From the NCBI GenBank assembly GCA_018400055.1, contig JAGYNK010000005.1, positions 1 to 26,778 on the forward strand: a DNA stretch of 26,778 nucleotides, in the 5' to 3' direction. A program made the translations under genes and the position numbers. Position 1 is the first letter of the stretch, and each line of letters opens with the position of its first letter. Under the pieces are notes generated by a model, which saw nothing but the letters and a program-made list of their open reading frames with translations, was not told the origin of the DNA and made no database searches. Below, piece after piece: positions 2,481-18,306 of the stretch. Source of the stretch: Candidatus Moraniibacteriota bacterium (GTDB lineage Bacteria > Patescibacteriota > Minisyncoccia > Moranbacterales > UBA9337).

Positions 2481-3671
2481 ATGGCAGAAGAATTTAAAAG
2501 AGATAAAACTCATGTTAATGTTGGAACAATCGGTCATGTTGATCATGGAAAAACAACTTTAACCGCCGCCATGTTACACGTTTTGAGCTTGAAGGGAATG
2601 GCTAAGGAAAAAGGAGTCAAGGAAATTGATAATGCTCCGGAAGAGCAAGAACGCGGTATCACCATTGCGACAGCTCACTGTGAATATGAATCGGAAAAAA
2701 GGCATTACGCTCATGTGGACTGTCCGGGTCATGCGGATTATATTAAAAATATGATTACCGGCGCTGCCCAGATGGACGGAGCTATTTTGGTGGTAAGCGC
2801 CAATGACGGTCCTATGCCTCAAACCAGAGAGCATATTCTTCTGGCCAGGCAAGTAGGTGTTCCGGCTATTGTTGTTTTTATTAATAAAGTTGACATGGTG
2901 GATGATCCGGAATTGGTTGATTTGGTGGAAGATGAAATAAGGGAATTATTGTCTAAGTATGAGTTTGACGGAGAAAATGCGGCTATTGTCAGAGGATCCG
3001 CTTTAAAGGCTTTAGATGCGAAATCGGCTGATGAAGATGTGGCTAAGCCTATCTGGGATATTTTAAAAGCTTTGGATGAAAAAATTCCGGAGCCGGTGCG
3101 CGATACGGAAAAACCCCTTTTAATGCCCATTGAAGATATTTTTTCCATAGAAGGACGAGGGACGGTAGCTACGGGAAGGATTGAAAGAGGCGTGGTAAAT
3201 ATTAATGACGAAGTGGAGATTGTCGGATTAAGAGATACTCAAAAAACAGTTGTGACCGGTATAGAAATGTTCAATAAATCCTTAGATAAGGGGCAGGCGG
3301 GTGACAATGCGGGAGTTCTTTTGCGAGGTACCAAAAAAGAGGATATAGAGAGAGGGCAAGTTTTAGCCAAGCCGGGTTCTATAACTCCGCATACTGAATT
3401 TGAAGGAGAGGTTTATGTTTTGACCAAAGAAGAAGGCGGAAGACATACTCCATTCCTAAAAGGATATAAGCCTCAATTTTATGTAAGGACCACTGATGTT
3501 ACCGGTGAAGTTGAGCTTCCGGAAGGAACCGAGATGGTTATGCCCGGAGACACGGTGAATTTGAAAATCAAATTAGTTTCCCCGGTAGCCATGGAAGAAG
3601 GAATGCGCTTCGCTATTCGCGAGGGAGGAAAGACGGTGGGAGCCGGAGTGGCTACTAAGATCATAAAATAA
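2481..3671 (+). CDS. tuf: Elongation factor Tu
   Basis: 396 aa; [51 protein letters not shown]. Confidence 0.99.
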
Positions 3672-3736
3672 TTCGGTTATAAGAAATAGAAATAAAATAA
3701 GAAAGGCAGAGTTTTTATTTATTTAAAAATTTAGAA

Positions 3737-4066
3737 ATGACAAAGAAAACGGAGGAAACACCACAATCAAGAATTAGGATTAAAATCAAGGCTTATGACA
3801 ACAAGGTCATTGACCAGTCAACAAGCAAGATTGTTGAAACAGCAGAAAGAAGCGGAGCAAAAATTTCCGGTCCGGTTCCTCTGCCTACCGAAATTCACAA
3901 AGTAACGGTTAATCGTTCTACTTTTGTGCATAAAGACGCCCGCGATCAGTATGAAATGAGAGTGCATAAAAGGCTGGTTGATATTTGGGATCCGAAGCCG
4001 AAAACTATTGACGATTTGACTAATCTTGATTTACCGGCGGGAGTGGACATAGAAATAAAAATGTGA
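3737..4066 (+). CDS. rpsJ: 30S ribosomal protein S10
   Basis: [45 protein letters not shown]. Confidence 0.98.
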
Positions 4067-4072
4067 TATTTT

Positions 4073-4153
4073 TTACGAATTACTAATCTATTACGAATAT
4101 ACCAATCTTTTAATAACTCATTCGTATATTGGTAAGGGATTAGTAATTCGTAA
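4073..4153. repeat. Long inverted repeat built from tacgaat/tactaat/taccaat units
   Basis: ttacgaattactaatc (4073-4088) is the exact reverse complement of gattagtaattcgtaa (4138-4153); inner arms 4091-4106 and 4120-4135 pair at 14/16. Confidence 0.85.
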
Positions 4154-4158
4154 TTATG

Positions 4159-4269
4159 TTAGTTCAAGTCCCATTTTTGCCTAAAAGCTAGCGTTATATG
4201 GGATACTAAACTAGCCAGAAATTTTTTAAAATCTTAAAAGGTTTAACTGGCTTGGATGACCAGTTTTTT
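4159..4269 (+). promoter_or_regulatory. Candidate structured leader or attenuator upstream of rplC
   Basis: Stems tagtt/aacta and tcccat/atggga; alternative pairings agccag(4213-4218)/ctggct(4247-4252) versus aactgg(4245-4250)/ccagtt(4260-4265) followed by a T run. Confidence 0.35.
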
Positions 4270-4285
4270 ATTTGCAATTAAAAAG

Positions 4286-4849
4286 ATGAGTAAGTTTATA
4301 CTGGGAAAAAAAATAGGGATGACTACCATTTACAGCGAGAACAAAAACGCTTTGAATGTAACTCTCATTGAATGTGAGCCTAATTTAGTTTTGTTAAACA
4401 GGACCAAAGAGAGAGATAAATATACCGCCACTTTATTGAAAGTGGAAAAGAATAAGAAGAAATTCCATCTCAAGGAATTTCGTCTGGAAGAAAAGGATAT
4501 GCCCAAGGAAGGGGATAAAATAACTGTGGACGTTTTCCAAGAAGGAGATAAAGTAAAAGTGAGCGGGATTTCCAAGGCGAAGGGTTTTCAGGGAGTAATT
4601 AAAAGACATAATTTTCATGGTTCTCCGCATTCCCATGGTCATAGACATGACTGGAGAGCTCCGGGTTCCATCGGAAGCGCTTATCCGCAACATGTTATGA
4701 AAGGCAAAAAGATGGCGGGCAGAATGGGAGGAGAAAGAGTTACGACAAAGAATTTGGAAATAGTTTATATAGACAAGAGCAAGAATTTATTGGGAGTCAG
4801 GGGAGCTGTGCCGGGAGTTAACGGAAGAATAGTTGAAATAGCGGGATAA
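4286..4849 (+). CDS. rplC: 50S ribosomal protein L3 (start moved to 4286, MSKFILGKK)
   Basis: GKKIGMT, KGFQGVIKRHNF, RAPGSIG, KGKKMAGRMG, GAVPG; the family N-terminus fits the 4286 ATG. Confidence 0.96.
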   Translation: MSKFILGKKIGMTTIYSENKNALNVTLIECEPNLVLLNRTKERDKYTATLLKVEKNKKKFHLKEFRLEEKDMPKEGDKITVDVFQEGDKVKVSGISKAKGFQGVIKRHNFHGSPHSHGHRHDWRAPGSIGSAYPQHVMKGKKMAGRMGGERVTTKNLEIVYIDKSKNLLGVRGAVPGVNGRIVEIAG

Positions 4850-14274: not shown

Positions 14275-14310
14275 TAGAGGCATCTATAGATGCCTCTATA
14301 GATGCCTCTA
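14275..14310. repeat. 24-bp perfect palindrome with one 12-bp arm duplicated in tandem
   Basis: tagaggcatcta | tagatgcctcta | tagatgcctcta. Confidence 0.9.
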
Positions 14311-14634: not shown

Positions 14635-15918
14635 ATGTTTGAAAAAGCGATTAATAAGATAGCTCAAATTTTTAAGGTTAAGGAATTAAGAAATAAAATT
14701 CTCTTTATTTTGGCGATTTTGATAGTGTTCAGATTGGCGGCCAGTGTCCCTCTTCCGGGAGTGGATGCCGAACAGCTGAAAAGTTTTTTTGAAGGCAATG
14801 AGCTTTTCGGACTGCTGAATATTTTTTCCGGTGGAGGATTGGGAAATATTTCCATCGTTCTTTTGGGAGTGGGTCCCTATATTACCGCTTCAATCATAAT
14901 GCAGCTTTTGACTATGATTGTTCCGCGTCTGGAGCAGTTATATAAAGAAGAGGGAGAAGCCGGACGGCAAAAGTTCAATATGTGGACACGCTGGCTTACG
15001 GTTCCTTTGGGCGGAATGCAAACTTTCGGGATGATTTCTTTGTTGCGCTCTCAGCAAGTTTTCGGAGAACTTTCCTCTTTTGATATAGTTACCATAGTGA
15101 CGGTAGCTACGGCCGGAACAATTTTTCTGATGTGGTTGGGGGAGCTTATTACCGAAAAGGGAATAGGAAATGGAGTTTCTATGATAATTTTTGCCGGAAT
15201 AGTCGCCAGTCTTCCCGGAGGAGTTTCCCGTATGGCGGCCACTTTTGATTCCACCCAATTTTTTACTTACATTTTGTTTGTAGCCATAGCTTTGGTGACT
15301 ATTGCCGGAGTAGTTTTAGTTAATGAAGGTCAAAGAAATATTCCCATTTCTTATGCCAAGAGAATTCGGGGAAACAGGACTTATGGAGGAACATCAACTC
15401 ATTTGCCTTTAAAAGTGAATCAAGCGGGAGTGATTCCTCTTATTTTTGCCATTTCCATAATGCTTTTTCCGGGAGTAATCGCCAGTTTTTTATCTAACGT
15501 AAACAATGCTACTGTGGCCGGCGTGGCGGCTTCAGTGGCTGCCGTTTTCCAAAATCAGTGGTTTTACGGAGCCATGTATTTTATTATGGTGGTCATGTTT
15601 ACCTATTTTTATACAGCGGTAATATTTGATCCCTATAAAGTTTCCGAGAATTTGCAGAAGCAAGGAGGATATGTCCCGGGAATTCGTCCGGGAACTTCCA
15701 CTTCTGAGTATTTGTATAAAATAATGAACAGAATTACTTTGTCGGGAGCCATATTTTTGGGCATTATCGCGATCTTGCCTTTGATAGTCCAAGGACTTAC
15801 CGGAATTCAAAATCTAACTATTGGAGGGGCCAGCGTCTTAATTACCGTAGCGGTGGTTATTGAGACGGTTAAGCAAGTGGAAGGTCAATTGGTGATGAGG
15901 GATTACGAAGGGTTCTGA
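14635..15918 (+). CDS. secY: Preprotein translocase subunit SecY
   Basis: 427 aa, multiple hydrophobic segments; LGVGPYITASIIMQLL, FLMWLGELITEKGIGNGVS, LPLKVNQAGVIPLIFA, GGYVPGIRPG. Confidence 0.99.
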   Translation: MFEKAINKIAQIFKVKELRNKILFILAILIVFRLAASVPLPGVDAEQLKSFFEGNELFGLLNIFSGGGLGNISIVLLGVGPYITASIIMQLLTMIVPRLEQLYKEEGEAGRQKFNMWTRWLTVPLGGMQTFGMISLLRSQQVFGELSSFDIVTIVTVATAGTIFLMWLGELITEKGIGNGVSMIIFAGIVASLPGGVSRMAATFDSTQFFTYILFVAIALVTIAGVVLVNEGQRNIPISYAKRIRGNRTYGGTSTHLPLKVNQAGVIPLIFAISIMLFPGVIASFLSNVNNATVAGVAASVAAVFQNQWFYGAMYFIMVVMFTYFYTAVIFDPYKVSENLQKQGGYVPGIRPGTSTSEYLYKIMNRITLSGAIFLGIIAILPLIVQGLTGIQNLTIGGASVLITVAVVIETVKQVEGQLVMRDYEGF

Positions 15919-15968: not shown

Positions 15969-16745
15969 ATGCAGACGGCTAGTGTTAAAACTAAAGAAGA
16001 AATTGACATTATGCGCGAAGGTTGCCAAAAAACGGCTGAAATGGTGGAAGAGCTAGGAAGAAAAGCGAAGCCCGGAATCAGCACTTTGGAAATAGATGAG
16101 CTTGCGGAAAGGCTCATTTTAAATATGGGAGGCAGACCGGCTTTTAAAGGTTACGGAAAAGAAAGCGGCTATCCTTTTCCGGCTACAATTTGTGCTTCCA
16201 TTAACAACGAAGTGGTTCATGGAATACCCAAGAAAAGCCGGATTTTACAAGAGGGAGAAATTTTTAAGATTGATACCGGAATGATATACAAGGGAATGTT
16301 TACGGATATGACGCGCGCTTTTGCAGTAGGCGAGATAAGCGATGAAAAACGGAGGATTATTTCCGTAGCTAAAGGCGCTTTTTATGCCGGTTTGAAAAAA
16401 ATAAAGCCCGGTAAGCTTTTAAGCGATTATTCCAAAGCGGTTCAGAAATATGTTGAAAAGAGAAATTTTTCAATAGTGCGTGATTTAACCAGTCATGGCA
16501 TCGGGAAAAATCTTCACGAGTCTCCGCAAATTCTTAATTTTTACCATCAGGGCTATGAAGATTTAGAATTAAAAGCGGGAATGACTTTTGCTTTAGAGCC
16601 GATAATCAATGCTGGAGGTCCCGAAATTGTTACCGGCGAAGACGGATGGACATTGGAAACTATGGATGGAAGTTTAAGCGGGCATTGGGAAAATACGATT
16701 GTGATAACTGAAAATGGAGCGGAGATACTGACAAAGACACAATAG
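15969..16745 (+). CDS. map: Methionine aminopeptidase type I
   Basis: ICASINNEVVHGIP, IDTG, DMTR, HGIG..LHE, ALEP, HWENT metal ligands. Confidence 0.96.
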   Translation: MQTASVKTKEEIDIMREGCQKTAEMVEELGRKAKPGISTLEIDELAERLILNMGGRPAFKGYGKESGYPFPATICASINNEVVHGIPKKSRILQEGEIFKIDTGMIYKGMFTDMTRAFAVGEISDEKRRIISVAKGAFYAGLKKIKPGKLLSDYSKAVQKYVEKRNFSIVRDLTSHGIGKNLHESPQILNFYHQGYEDLELKAGMTFALEPIINAGGPEIVTGEDGWTLETMDGSLSGHWENTIVITENGAEILTKTQ

Positions 16746-16809
16746 TCTTAGCAACTTCTGTAGTATTTTGCATATTTATCAGTTTAATCGTAACTATTAT
16801 TTTAACCGG

Positions 16810-16841
16810 CCTACTCCCATATATTAATATATGGGAGTAGG
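16810..16841. repeat. 32-bp perfect palindrome, copy 1; candidate operator or recombination site
   Basis: cctactcccatatattaatatatgggagtagg equals its own reverse complement. Confidence 0.95.
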
Positions 16842-16900
16842 AAAATAGAAAATATAGAAAATAGCAAAAATTATTTAAGTATTTTTGAATAAGTAAAAAT

Positions 16901-17323
16901 ATGTCAAAAGTGAAGCCTTACGGCTTAGATTATAGGGAAAAAAAGAGAATAGTTTTGGTAATGTTTGAAATCATTGGAAGATTGAAAACTAAAAAAGAAA
17001 TTATTGATTTTTTGTTGGGGCTTTTAACCGCCAGTGAAGCATTAATGATAGCGCGTCGGATTGAAATTGCCGTATTACTTTTAAAAAAAGAAAGCTTTAG
17101 TAAAATTAAACGAAAACTTAAAGTTGGTAATAATACTATTCAGCAGGTGGAAAGATGGCTTTACGATGGTGATGAAAAACAAAGAAAATGGTTGGCGGTG
17201 CATATCCTTCCGGAATTAAAATCAAAAGAAGGAACGAAAACCTATTCAAAACCCAGGTACACAGGCAGTATTCTTGATCGTTATTCACATCATCGTTTTT
17301 TAAAAGATTTGTTGGGATTATAA
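16901..17323 (+). CDS. TrpR-like (YerC/YecD-type) helix-turn-helix regulator
   Basis: DFLLGLLTASEALMIARRIEIAVLL...SFSKIKRKLKVGNNTIQQVERWL fits the Trp-repressor family pattern LLT.SE..M.ARR..IA..L....Y..I...L.V...TI..V. Confidence 0.75.
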   Translation: MSKVKPYGLDYREKKRIVLVMFEIIGRLKTKKEIIDFLLGLLTASEALMIARRIEIAVLLLKKESFSKIKRKLKVGNNTIQQVERWLYDGDEKQRKWLAVHILPELKSKEGTKTYSKPRYTGSILDRYSHHRFLKDLLGL

Positions 17324-17391
17324 CAGTTTAAGATCTAATAGATTTAAGCTTATGTGCACAGTTAGCAAATAAGCGCAAGTGGTATATCTAA

Positions 17392-17425
17392 TACTACTCC
17401 CATATATTAATATATGGGAGTAGTA
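17392..17425. repeat. 34-bp perfect palindrome, copy 2; 30-bp core identical to copy 1
   Basis: tactactcccatatattaatatatgggagtagta; core 17394-17423 equals 16811-16840. Confidence 0.95.
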
Positions 17426-17464
17426 GAATTAAAATTAAAATTAAAATTAAAAATAGTAAATTAT

Positions 17465-17878
17465 ATGAAGATTGGCATAATTGGTTCCATGCAGTTTACC
17501 GGAAAAATGCTTGAGGTTAGAGACAAGCTTAAGGAATTGGGACACGATGCTTTTATTACGGATTTGCATAAAGCGATGATCGGCAAGGATGAAAAGGAAA
17601 TAGAAAAAATAAAGCTTTATCAAAAATACAATAAGGATGCCATACGCGAATTCTGGAAAGCCATGCAAGGCGCTGATGCGGTTTTGGTTTTAAATTTGGA
17701 TAAAAATGGAATTAAAAATTATGTCGGTGGCAATACTTTGATGGAAATCGGTTTTGCTCATGTGCTTAATCAGAAAATATTTATGTGGAATCCTATTCCT
17801 GATATGAGTTATTGCGAGACTGAAATAAAAGCGGTAAACCCGATTATTATTAATGGCAATTTTTCTTTAATTAAATAA
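17465..17878 (+). CDS. Hypothetical 137-aa protein, probable nucleoside 2-deoxyribosyltransferase/DNPH1-like fold (start moved to 17465)
   Basis: KIGIIGS N-terminal strand, ADAVLVLN, GGNTLMEIGFA with Glu94, KIF; CDS is well supported but the fold call is tentative. Confidence 0.55.
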   Translation: MKIGIIGSMQFTGKMLEVRDKLKELGHDAFITDLHKAMIGKDEKEIEKIKLYQKYNKDAIREFWKAMQGADAVLVLNLDKNGIKNYVGGNTLMEIGFAHVLNQKIFMWNPIPDMSYCETEIKAVNPIIINGNFSLIK

Positions 17879-17889
17879 AGGATTATTTT

Positions 17890-18306
17890 ATGAAAGAAAA
17901 AAAGAAATATGAAGCATTTAATTATCTCGGACTTGATTGGGGAAAAACCAATATCGGGTTGGCTTTGGCGGACGGAGAAACTAGGATAGCCTTGGCTTAC
18001 GGAACTTTGAAAAATGAAAATAATTTTATGAAAGAATTGGAAAAAATAATCAGGGATAAAAATATTCGGGAGGTGGTTATTGGAATCCCTTCTTATATTA
18101 ATCGTGAAAGAGTGGAGTATGAAGGAGAAACTTTGGGTAAAATTATAGAGGCGAATTTAAATGTAGGTGTCCATTATCAAAATGAAATGTTCACCACTAA
18201 AATGGCACAAGCCAATCTTATTGAAAAAGGCGCGAAGAAAATAAAAAATTACGATGACCAGGAAGCGGCCAGGATAATTCTTCAGGATTGGCTGGATAAA
18301 AGATAA
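17890..18306 (+). CDS. yqgF: YqgF/RuvX-family RNase H-fold nuclease (pre-16S rRNA nuclease/resolvase-like)
   Basis: YLGLDWGKTNIGLALAD, VVIGIP, NEMFTT, DDQEAARIILQDWL. Confidence 0.88.
   Translation: MKEKKKYEAFNYLGLDWGKTNIGLALADGETRIALAYGTLKNENNFMKELEKIIRDKNIREVVIGIPSYINRERVEYEGETLGKIIEANLNVGVHYQNEMFTTKMAQANLIEKGAKKIKNYDDQEAARIILQDWLDKR

Follow-up and report, generated by a model that had tools for sequence, protein, structure and literature searches.

Paired long palindromes around a TrpR-like gene of a Moranbacteria genome as probable operators of the encoded repressor

Why should a small regulator gene carry the same long palindrome on both of its sides, and does its product act on them? 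The locus lies in a window (the whole stretch of DNA that was analysed, 26,778 nucleotides) that is contig C5 of a Candidatus Moraniibacteriota assembly labelled G000 (738,431 bp, 121 contigs, 36% G+C, 89% complete). The perfect 30-bp palindrome CTACTCCCATATATTAATATATGGGAGTAG occurs there at 16811-16840 and again at 17394-17423, 583 bp apart and with 0 mismatches, and it has 0 matches in 100 dinucleotide shuffles of the window. The symmetry continues past this shared core to 32 bp upstream (16810-16841) and 34 bp downstream (17392-17425). The upstream palindrome is centred 75.5 nt before ATG 16901, and the downstream palindrome is centred 85.5 nt past the regulator's stop codon and 56.5 nt ahead of ATG 17465. 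These measurements bear out the preliminary description, which had reported two identical palindromes flanking a TrpR-like gene, symmetry extending beyond their core, and centres about 75 and 56 nt ahead of the two ATGs. The gene order is secY (14635-15918), map, site, PF01371 gene, site, NDT-like gene, ruvX and a GT2 glycosyltransferase gene, with these central features:

15969-16745, plus strand: map, methionine aminopeptidase (Pfam Peptidase_M24, E = 4.8e-46), the last conserved gene preceding the inserted block
16810-16841 (core 16811-16840), no strand: upstream palindrome, a putative operator for autoregulation
16901-17323, plus strand: TrpR/YerC-fold DNA-binding protein, 140 aa (PF01371, 44.5 bits)
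17392-17425 (core 17394-17423), no strand: downstream palindrome, a putative second operator, preceding the NDT-like and ruvX genes
17465-17878, plus strand: NDT-like (nucleoside-deoxyribosyltransferase-like) protein, 137 aa (PF05014, weak, E = 0.057)
17890-18306, plus strand: ruvX/yqgF (Pfam RuvX, E = 1.3e-25), beginning 11 nt past the NDT-like gene

We conclude that the palindromes are probably operators of the encoded repressor, which would give autoregulation together with control of the NDT-like and ruvX genes. The ruvX gene is probably co-transcribed with the NDT-like gene, and the latter is likely to be the regulated cargo.

A search of the whole genome at up to 3 mismatches returned two copies of CTACTCCCATATATTAATATATGGGAGTAG, both in the window, which disposes of the suggestion that it might be a generic REP-type repeat with hundreds of copies. 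The site-gene-site layout also appears in independent assemblies of three other lineages, so the duplication is unlikely to have arisen from misassembly. Among Logan contigs, the locus was found in the DNA of one sediment metagenome (two runs), where contigs end at the palindromes and none spans them; no RNA runs holding the locus were found. A promoter scan of the locus returned weak sigma-70-like matches only, no better than those in shuffled sequence.

The regulator belongs to the TrpR family by its match to the Pfam Trp_repressor profile (44.5 bits, gathering cut-off 27). It scores 30.6 bits against TIGR02531, the HisR/YerC-YecD equivalog (cut-off 42.2), and 20.2 bits against TIGR01321, the TrpR equivalog (cut-off 67.25), and it carries a C-terminal extension of about 30 aa (residues ~109-140) with a conserved tail, LLDRYxHHRFLKDLLGL, that is absent from YerC/YecD and TrpR. 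The recognition helix conserved across its protein family reads 'xxTIxxVxxW'. The family profile matches PDB entries 3FRW, 3G1C and 3KOR with E values between 1e-18 and 1e-21, and for E. coli TrpR the value is about 1e-7. An AF2 monomer model has an overall pLDDT of 83, with block means of 88-97 over residues 11-102 (75 for the block that includes residues 101-102); it adopts the all-helical TrpR fold, with helices D and E as the HTH, and Foldseek aligns it with 3FRW, 3KOR and 1TRO at a probability of 1.00 and TM scores of 0.72-0.83. Scores below both equivalog cut-offs and the extra C-terminal tail point to a divergent subfamily that is neither HisR nor TrpR. The earlier YerC/YecD-like assignment is consequently withdrawn; no his or trp genes are found among the neighbours either. 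From its sequence and modelled fold, we place the 140-aa regulator in a divergent, expanded TrpR-fold subfamily. The site and ligand of YerC had been described as not known to be defined, whereas B. subtilis YerC is HisR, a TrpR-family histidine repressor that recognises a 20-bp palindrome with histidine as its co-repressor (PMC9413887).

If the palindromes are operators of this subfamily, other members should have sites of their own, and a check for long palindromes beside the other TrpR-like paralogs had been proposed. The genome encodes seven PF01371 paralogs, all above the Pfam cut-off, and a different long palindrome adjoins each. In a blind test, the 160 bp before each gene's start were compared with the 160 bp after its stop, leaving out the seventh paralog, which sits at a contig end; a common 12-mer or longer was present for 6 of 6 testable paralogs and for 27 of 604 other genes. 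Each testable paralog is thus bracketed by a private palindrome, and regulator-operator pairs become readable from sequence alone. The 27 other positive genes are mostly low-complexity, small GIY-YIG or RAYT transposase genes. The small GIY-YIG-type genes flanked by common 12-mers or longer lie at C70:1528-1809, C78:2877-3119, C87:6355-6684 and C88:1535-1798, and they may be mobile or homing-type elements. In all, the genome has 128 long palindromes (arms with 12 or more matched bases, no more than 1 mismatch and a loop of up to 4), compared with 7 in a shuffled genome.

The paralogs differ in their number of site copies, which is 2 for C5, 2 for C12, about 5 for C14, 3 + 2 (in two spacings) for C114, 5-6 for C61, 7 for C35 and 3 for C16. 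Having just its two flanking sites, the C5 regulator has the smallest site set. For the C12 paralog, the AATATAGATT palindrome family was considered as the site and rejected; this gene is bracketed by TCCATATATCCATTTATGGA. On C35, an imperfect palindrome of 35-40 bp (GCAACA.ATTACCATTATTAGTAGAATGGTAGTAAGTTGCAA) occurs three times in succession at 3381-4470, with 4 further copies elsewhere, and the C35 palindromes stand between a NUDIX gene, a MazG/PRA-PH-like gene, a 171-aa TrpR-like paralog and mreB. Another Moranbacteria MAG has the NDT-like gene in the equivalent neighbourhood (MazG-like/mreB). Palindromes of the CACCAATATATTAATATATTGGTG type, at C49:3312, C52:10106 and C73:2991, combine the AT-rich centre of the window site with CAATAT half-sites. 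They bracket none of the paralogs in the 89%-complete assembly, so the gene for their regulator may lie in the part that is not assembled.

We then ask whether the arrangement is conserved. Three further lineages (82-86% amino acid identity), making four in all, retain secY-map-site-gene-site-X-ruvX-GT2, and in each of the three the upstream and downstream palindromes keep their places. Gene order and orientation are identical across the four lineages in the 14 contigs read (10 + 3 + 1). The conserved core of the site is the 26-bp A-Y-TCCCATATATT/AATATATGGGA-R-T. Position -12 is C in 4 of 4 half-sites here and T in 12 of 12 half-sites of the other three lineages; the outer flanks are lineage-specific, yet symmetric and matching between both copies; and one orthologous downstream site has -8 altered on both arms. 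Taken together, these patterns indicate concerted evolution of the four half-sites. The downstream site follows the stop codon after a spacer of 24 to 88 nt, and in one orthologous lineage a NUDIX hydrolase gene takes the place of the NDT-like gene as X. Because spacer and X vary while the site persists, the palindrome is the conserved unit and its surroundings are not.

In most genomes of the family, ruvX directly follows map, with neither a regulator nor a palindrome, which identifies the regulator and X as an insertion of this genus. The NDT-like gene is also found elsewhere in CPR without the regulator and without a palindrome. The Atlas neighbours of its product are unnamed, NDT and YtoQ clusters, and it has 2438 homologues; among the matches listed, identity is 76-87% across distant CPR- and DPANN-labelled MAGs. 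These are labelled Moranbacteria, Gribaldobacteria, Woesebacteria, Marinimicrobia and even Pacearchaeota, and the gene's contexts are unrelated (by MazG-like and mreB genes, by a NUDIX gene, beside a tRNA, beside an integrase). Map, by comparison, has an identity of merely 55-60% inside the family. The high identity of the NDT-like protein across such varied contexts suggests that this uncharacterised nucleotide enzyme is under very strong constraint and/or is often transferred horizontally.

The bracket is widespread in the subfamily. Inspection of loci in the family's 22 genomes shows a private palindrome on both sides of about 17 of 28 homologues; when pairing is automatic and follows a stricter rule, the figures are 19 of 29 (family loci and some phylum-level loci) and, in Moranbacteria MAGs, 22 of 44. 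Across the phylum, PF01371 is present in 96 of 301 genomes, most of which have a single unbracketed copy of ~100 aa, and no bracket was seen at the phylum's short classical TrpR/YerC genes of that length. In 7 further families of the phylum, longer paralogs (145-190 aa) have the bracket at 12 of 20 loci, with sites often touching the ORF ends. Related genomes have between 0 and 8 paralogs. At one locus (L012, G017:C45), a bracketed TrpR-like gene is inserted between hypD and hypE, interrupting a normally contiguous hydrogenase-maturation operon.

The sites themselves have the geometry of TrpR-family operators. Wherever sites are paired, the dyad is even, and the conserved half-site positions across 20 regulators are A-13, T-11, C-9, C/A-8, A-7, T-6, A-5 and T-4. 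In silico, C[C/A]ATAT emerges as conserved at -9..-4 over the 20 regulator-site sets, as in a palindromic operator of ~20 bp read ~4-9 bp from the dyad. TrpR reads GTACTAG and HisR reads cacTTTAn6TAAAgtg in this same register (PMC9413887). The CAATAT and CCATAT half-site classes track clades, with loci L169 and L179 as exceptions. We looked for the covariation between palindrome and recognition helix that had been proposed as a check, and no simple residue-to-base code was evident in 24 non-redundant regulator-site pairs; the recognition helices GNNTIQQVER and GNNNIQQVDR pair with CTCCCATAT and TTACCATAT, respectively. The distances between the centres of paired sites (505-583 bp) do not follow a helical phase.

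A conserved sequence in a fixed register is unlike what a mere hairpin would show, and this bears on the reading in which the palindromes act as RNA hairpins (terminators, stabilisers or processing sites) independently of the protein and flank the gene by chance. If transcribed, each site would fold into a perfect stem of 14-15 bp at -22 kcal/mol (z about -6), and in many paralogs the sites lie just past stop codons, as such a role would have it. However, the hairpins are followed by GGAAAAUAG or UAGAAUUAAAA, with no U tract as in an intrinsic terminator, and a terminator scan of 16700-17500 found 0 terminator-like sites. Of the arm mismatches, 6 are of the sense, 10 of the antisense and 6 of another type, which gives no G.U bias towards the sense strand. 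The genome also has a separate family of canonical terminator-like hairpins, and a role in RNA would leave two features unexplained: that every TrpR-like paralog is flanked at both ends by a sequence of its own, and that C[C/A]AT keeps a fixed register across families. We regard a protein-independent RNA function as extremely unlikely. The separate family, (A)nTAGAGGCATC-TATA-GATGCCTCTA(T)n, is dispersed, occurring at 14275-14310 of the window and at 11 other places in the genome, often with an additional direct 12-bp unit and mostly between convergent genes or at contig ends; it has the appearance of a repeat that serves as an intrinsic terminator in both directions.

The preliminary description had offered a second proposal, that the palindromes are the recombination ends of a mobile, excisable or invertible cassette. 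They would then be crossover or hairpin sites, and the HTH protein would be a site-recognition factor. This would agree with the block's presence as an insertion between map and ruvX, which adjoin in other genera, with the range of 0 to 8 paralogs among relatives, with the exchange of the gene past the downstream site (NDT-like versus NUDIX), with the homogenisation of upstream and downstream copies inside each lineage, and with the RAYT and GIY-YIG genes of the same genome, which are likewise repeat-flanked. Against it, a Pfam search of the locus and the orthologous contigs revealed neither a catalytic domain in the regulator nor a recombinase nearby, there are only two site copies in the genome, and order and orientation never vary among the contigs read. 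The proposal had predicted empty-site (map-palindrome-NDT) or inverted alleles; none occurs among the 14 assembled contigs of the four lineages, no single palindrome stands in a gene-less allele, and a lone palindrome ahead of the NDT-like gene was found in 0 of 4 loci of other lineages. With the exception of G018, whose site is that of a regulator encoded elsewhere, the empty map-ruvX gaps of other genera are free of palindromes. Nor do the palindromes delimit the inserted block, since the NDT-like gene is not between them. Recombination ends are in our view very unlikely.

The exception in G018, which is of another genus, is informative about the operator reading. An exact 26-mer that brackets a paralog on this genome's contig C61, by tatD, is found again, standing alone between map and ruvX, on its contig C85, and such a solo copy of another paralog's site argues for operators that act in trans. 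In the family genome G009, one 24-mer is exact at a regulator bracket and at 3 solo places. The solo sites of G018, G009 and G000 mostly lie ahead of genes. Among the genes linked to sites are ones that encode NDT-like, NUDIX, MazG/PRA-PH-like, dUTPase (after tmk), UDG, Maf, CYTH, HD and TatD proteins, a DNA-alkylation repair enzyme, a cytidylyltransferase, NIF3 and RuvX, all related to nucleotides or nucleic acids, and also HypE, SDR, MreB and a glycosyltransferase. This gene listing is suggestive of a nucleotide house-cleaning theme among the targets of the paralog family.

The mechanism that we propose for the operators is as follows. One dimer would occupy each dyad, its recognition helices reading the C-C-A-T-A-T hexamers at -9..-4, and extra contacts or a second dimer would span the symmetric flanks to about -13. 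The upstream site would confer negative autoregulation. The downstream site would control the NDT-like/ruvX unit and/or block transcription leaving the regulator gene. With a site at either end, the regulator would form an insulated unit within a co-directional gene array, and the two sites may cooperate through looping. The targets of the paralog family suggest that the effector could be a nucleotide-related signal.

The first proposal of the preliminary description, an operator pair, is therefore right in essence, and it applies far more widely than to the window alone. It agrees with the bracketing of every testable paralog, with the retention of the sites by the orthologues, and with the TrpR/HisR register. 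However, the downstream copy is not simply the operator of the next promoter, because in paralogs it hugs the stop codon and is sometimes located between convergent genes. Such convergent sites occur on C114 of this genome and at C3:85360 of G009, and a site in that position cannot act on a promoter there. The sister species G007 has no regulator of the C114 type and no solo palindrome after the orthologous 425-aa gene, where its contig stops 377 bp on. Other observations also sit poorly with operators. The perfect symmetry of 26-34 bp far exceeds the need of one HTH dimer. The concerted evolution of half-sites could also be produced by gene conversion or hairpin-templated repair. A range of 0-8 copies among relatives, with genes sitting as insertions (map/ruvX, hypD/hypE), is unusual for ordinary regulators.

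These same observations lead us to retain, as the main rival, a boundary or roadblock module, in which the protein binds the palindromes chiefly to delimit a transcription unit and not to repress a promoter. A DNA roadblock and an RNA hairpin would jointly keep transcription of map from running on into the regulator gene, and that of the regulator from running on into the next gene. Downstream copies lie 15-26 nt past the stop codon in 11 of 19 pairs, regardless of the distance to the next start; certain sites separate convergent genes; regulator genes stand within co-directional operons (hypD/hypE, map/ruvX); and a transcribed site would supply a hairpin of -22 kcal/mol. The window's own downstream site, however, is 85 nt from the stop codon and 56 nt from the next ATG, as in a promoter-proximal operator, the solo sites of G018, G009 and G000 mostly precede genes, and neither a U tract nor a wobble bias accompanies the hairpin. 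As the chief function of the palindromes, a roadblock is improbable.

A more speculative possibility, which we consider doubtful, is that site-gene-site constitutes an autonomous, portable regulatory cassette of CPR, whose repressor would clamp both ends of its gene by a loop or a double roadblock and insulate it. Such a cassette would land between housekeeping genes and remain insulated within read-through operons, while adjacent and often exchanged genes for nucleotide house-cleaning (NDT-like, NUDIX, MazG, dUTPase, UDG, Maf, HD, TatD) would gain private control. Concerted evolution would keep its long palindromes symmetric and alike, avoiding cross-talk among up to 8 paralogs.

To our knowledge, the CPR/Patescibacteria cannot be cultured alone and their gene regulation is almost wholly unknown. 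If the operator reading holds, a single protein family would provide 7 regulators in a 0.74-Mb genome, each matched to its predicted site by the both-sides rule. This yields dozens of testable predicted regulator-operator pairs and a natural series for the divergence of HTH specificity among paralogs. There is also a hint that nucleotide-pool sanitation and salvage, which auxotrophic symbionts need, could be under dedicated transcriptional control. A full-text literature search found work on HisR and TrpR and nothing on palindrome-bracketed TrpR-like genes in CPR; sites at both ends of the gene are not a described feature of the TrpR family.

Finally, we compare the locus with known systems. 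In REP/RAYT systems, the RAYT is an HUH/Y1 enzyme and the REPs number from tens to hundreds. The locus resembles REP/RAYT systems in having a gene flanked by cognate palindromes, as the paralogs do with more copies elsewhere, but the window protein is a non-catalytic HTH protein with two site copies, which places it outside that class. The genome does have REP-like GC-rich palindromes, in GTAGAGACG...CGTCTCTAC and CAGACCC...GGGTCTG families, flanking RAYT-type Y1 transposase genes (C108:5167-6071, C101:1474-2142, C68:3976, C106:7614, C39:2008, C47:247), and some copies lie within long housekeeping ORFs, apparently in frame (peptide RDEALPRLY).

HisR is the nearest relative in sequence and fold; it has a palindromic operator with the same half-site register and often regulates its own gene through a site ahead of it. 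It differs in being a single-copy protein of ~100 aa that senses histidine and controls his genes from an imperfect 20-bp site. The CPR subfamily, in contrast, has proteins such as this one of 140 aa, up to 7-8 paralogs per genome, perfect palindromes of 26-48 bp and sites on both sides of the gene; his genes are absent from the vicinity, and most of the putative targets serve nucleotide house-cleaning. Neither the HisR regulon nor its motif (cacTTTAn6TAAAgtg) is found at the locus, where the core of the site is TCCCATATATT and not TTTA.

E. coli TrpR has operators at trpR, trpEDCBA and aroH. It shares the fold (TM ~0.8), autoregulation and a dyad operator read at about -9..-3, and its tandem dimer binding (1TRO, 1TRR) is a precedent for sites that exceed one dimer. 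It differs in its CTAG-based operator of 18-20 bp, present as one copy ahead of trpR, and in its tryptophan co-repressor; we know of no downstream operator copy for it. The looping repressors, lambda cI between OL and OR and lac at O1-O2-O3, have proven oligomerisation. They resemble the CPR locus in having a repressor at two sites hundreds of bp apart, with a gene inside the potential loop, but they belong to other protein families, and at the CPR locus looping is what we infer from the arrangement.
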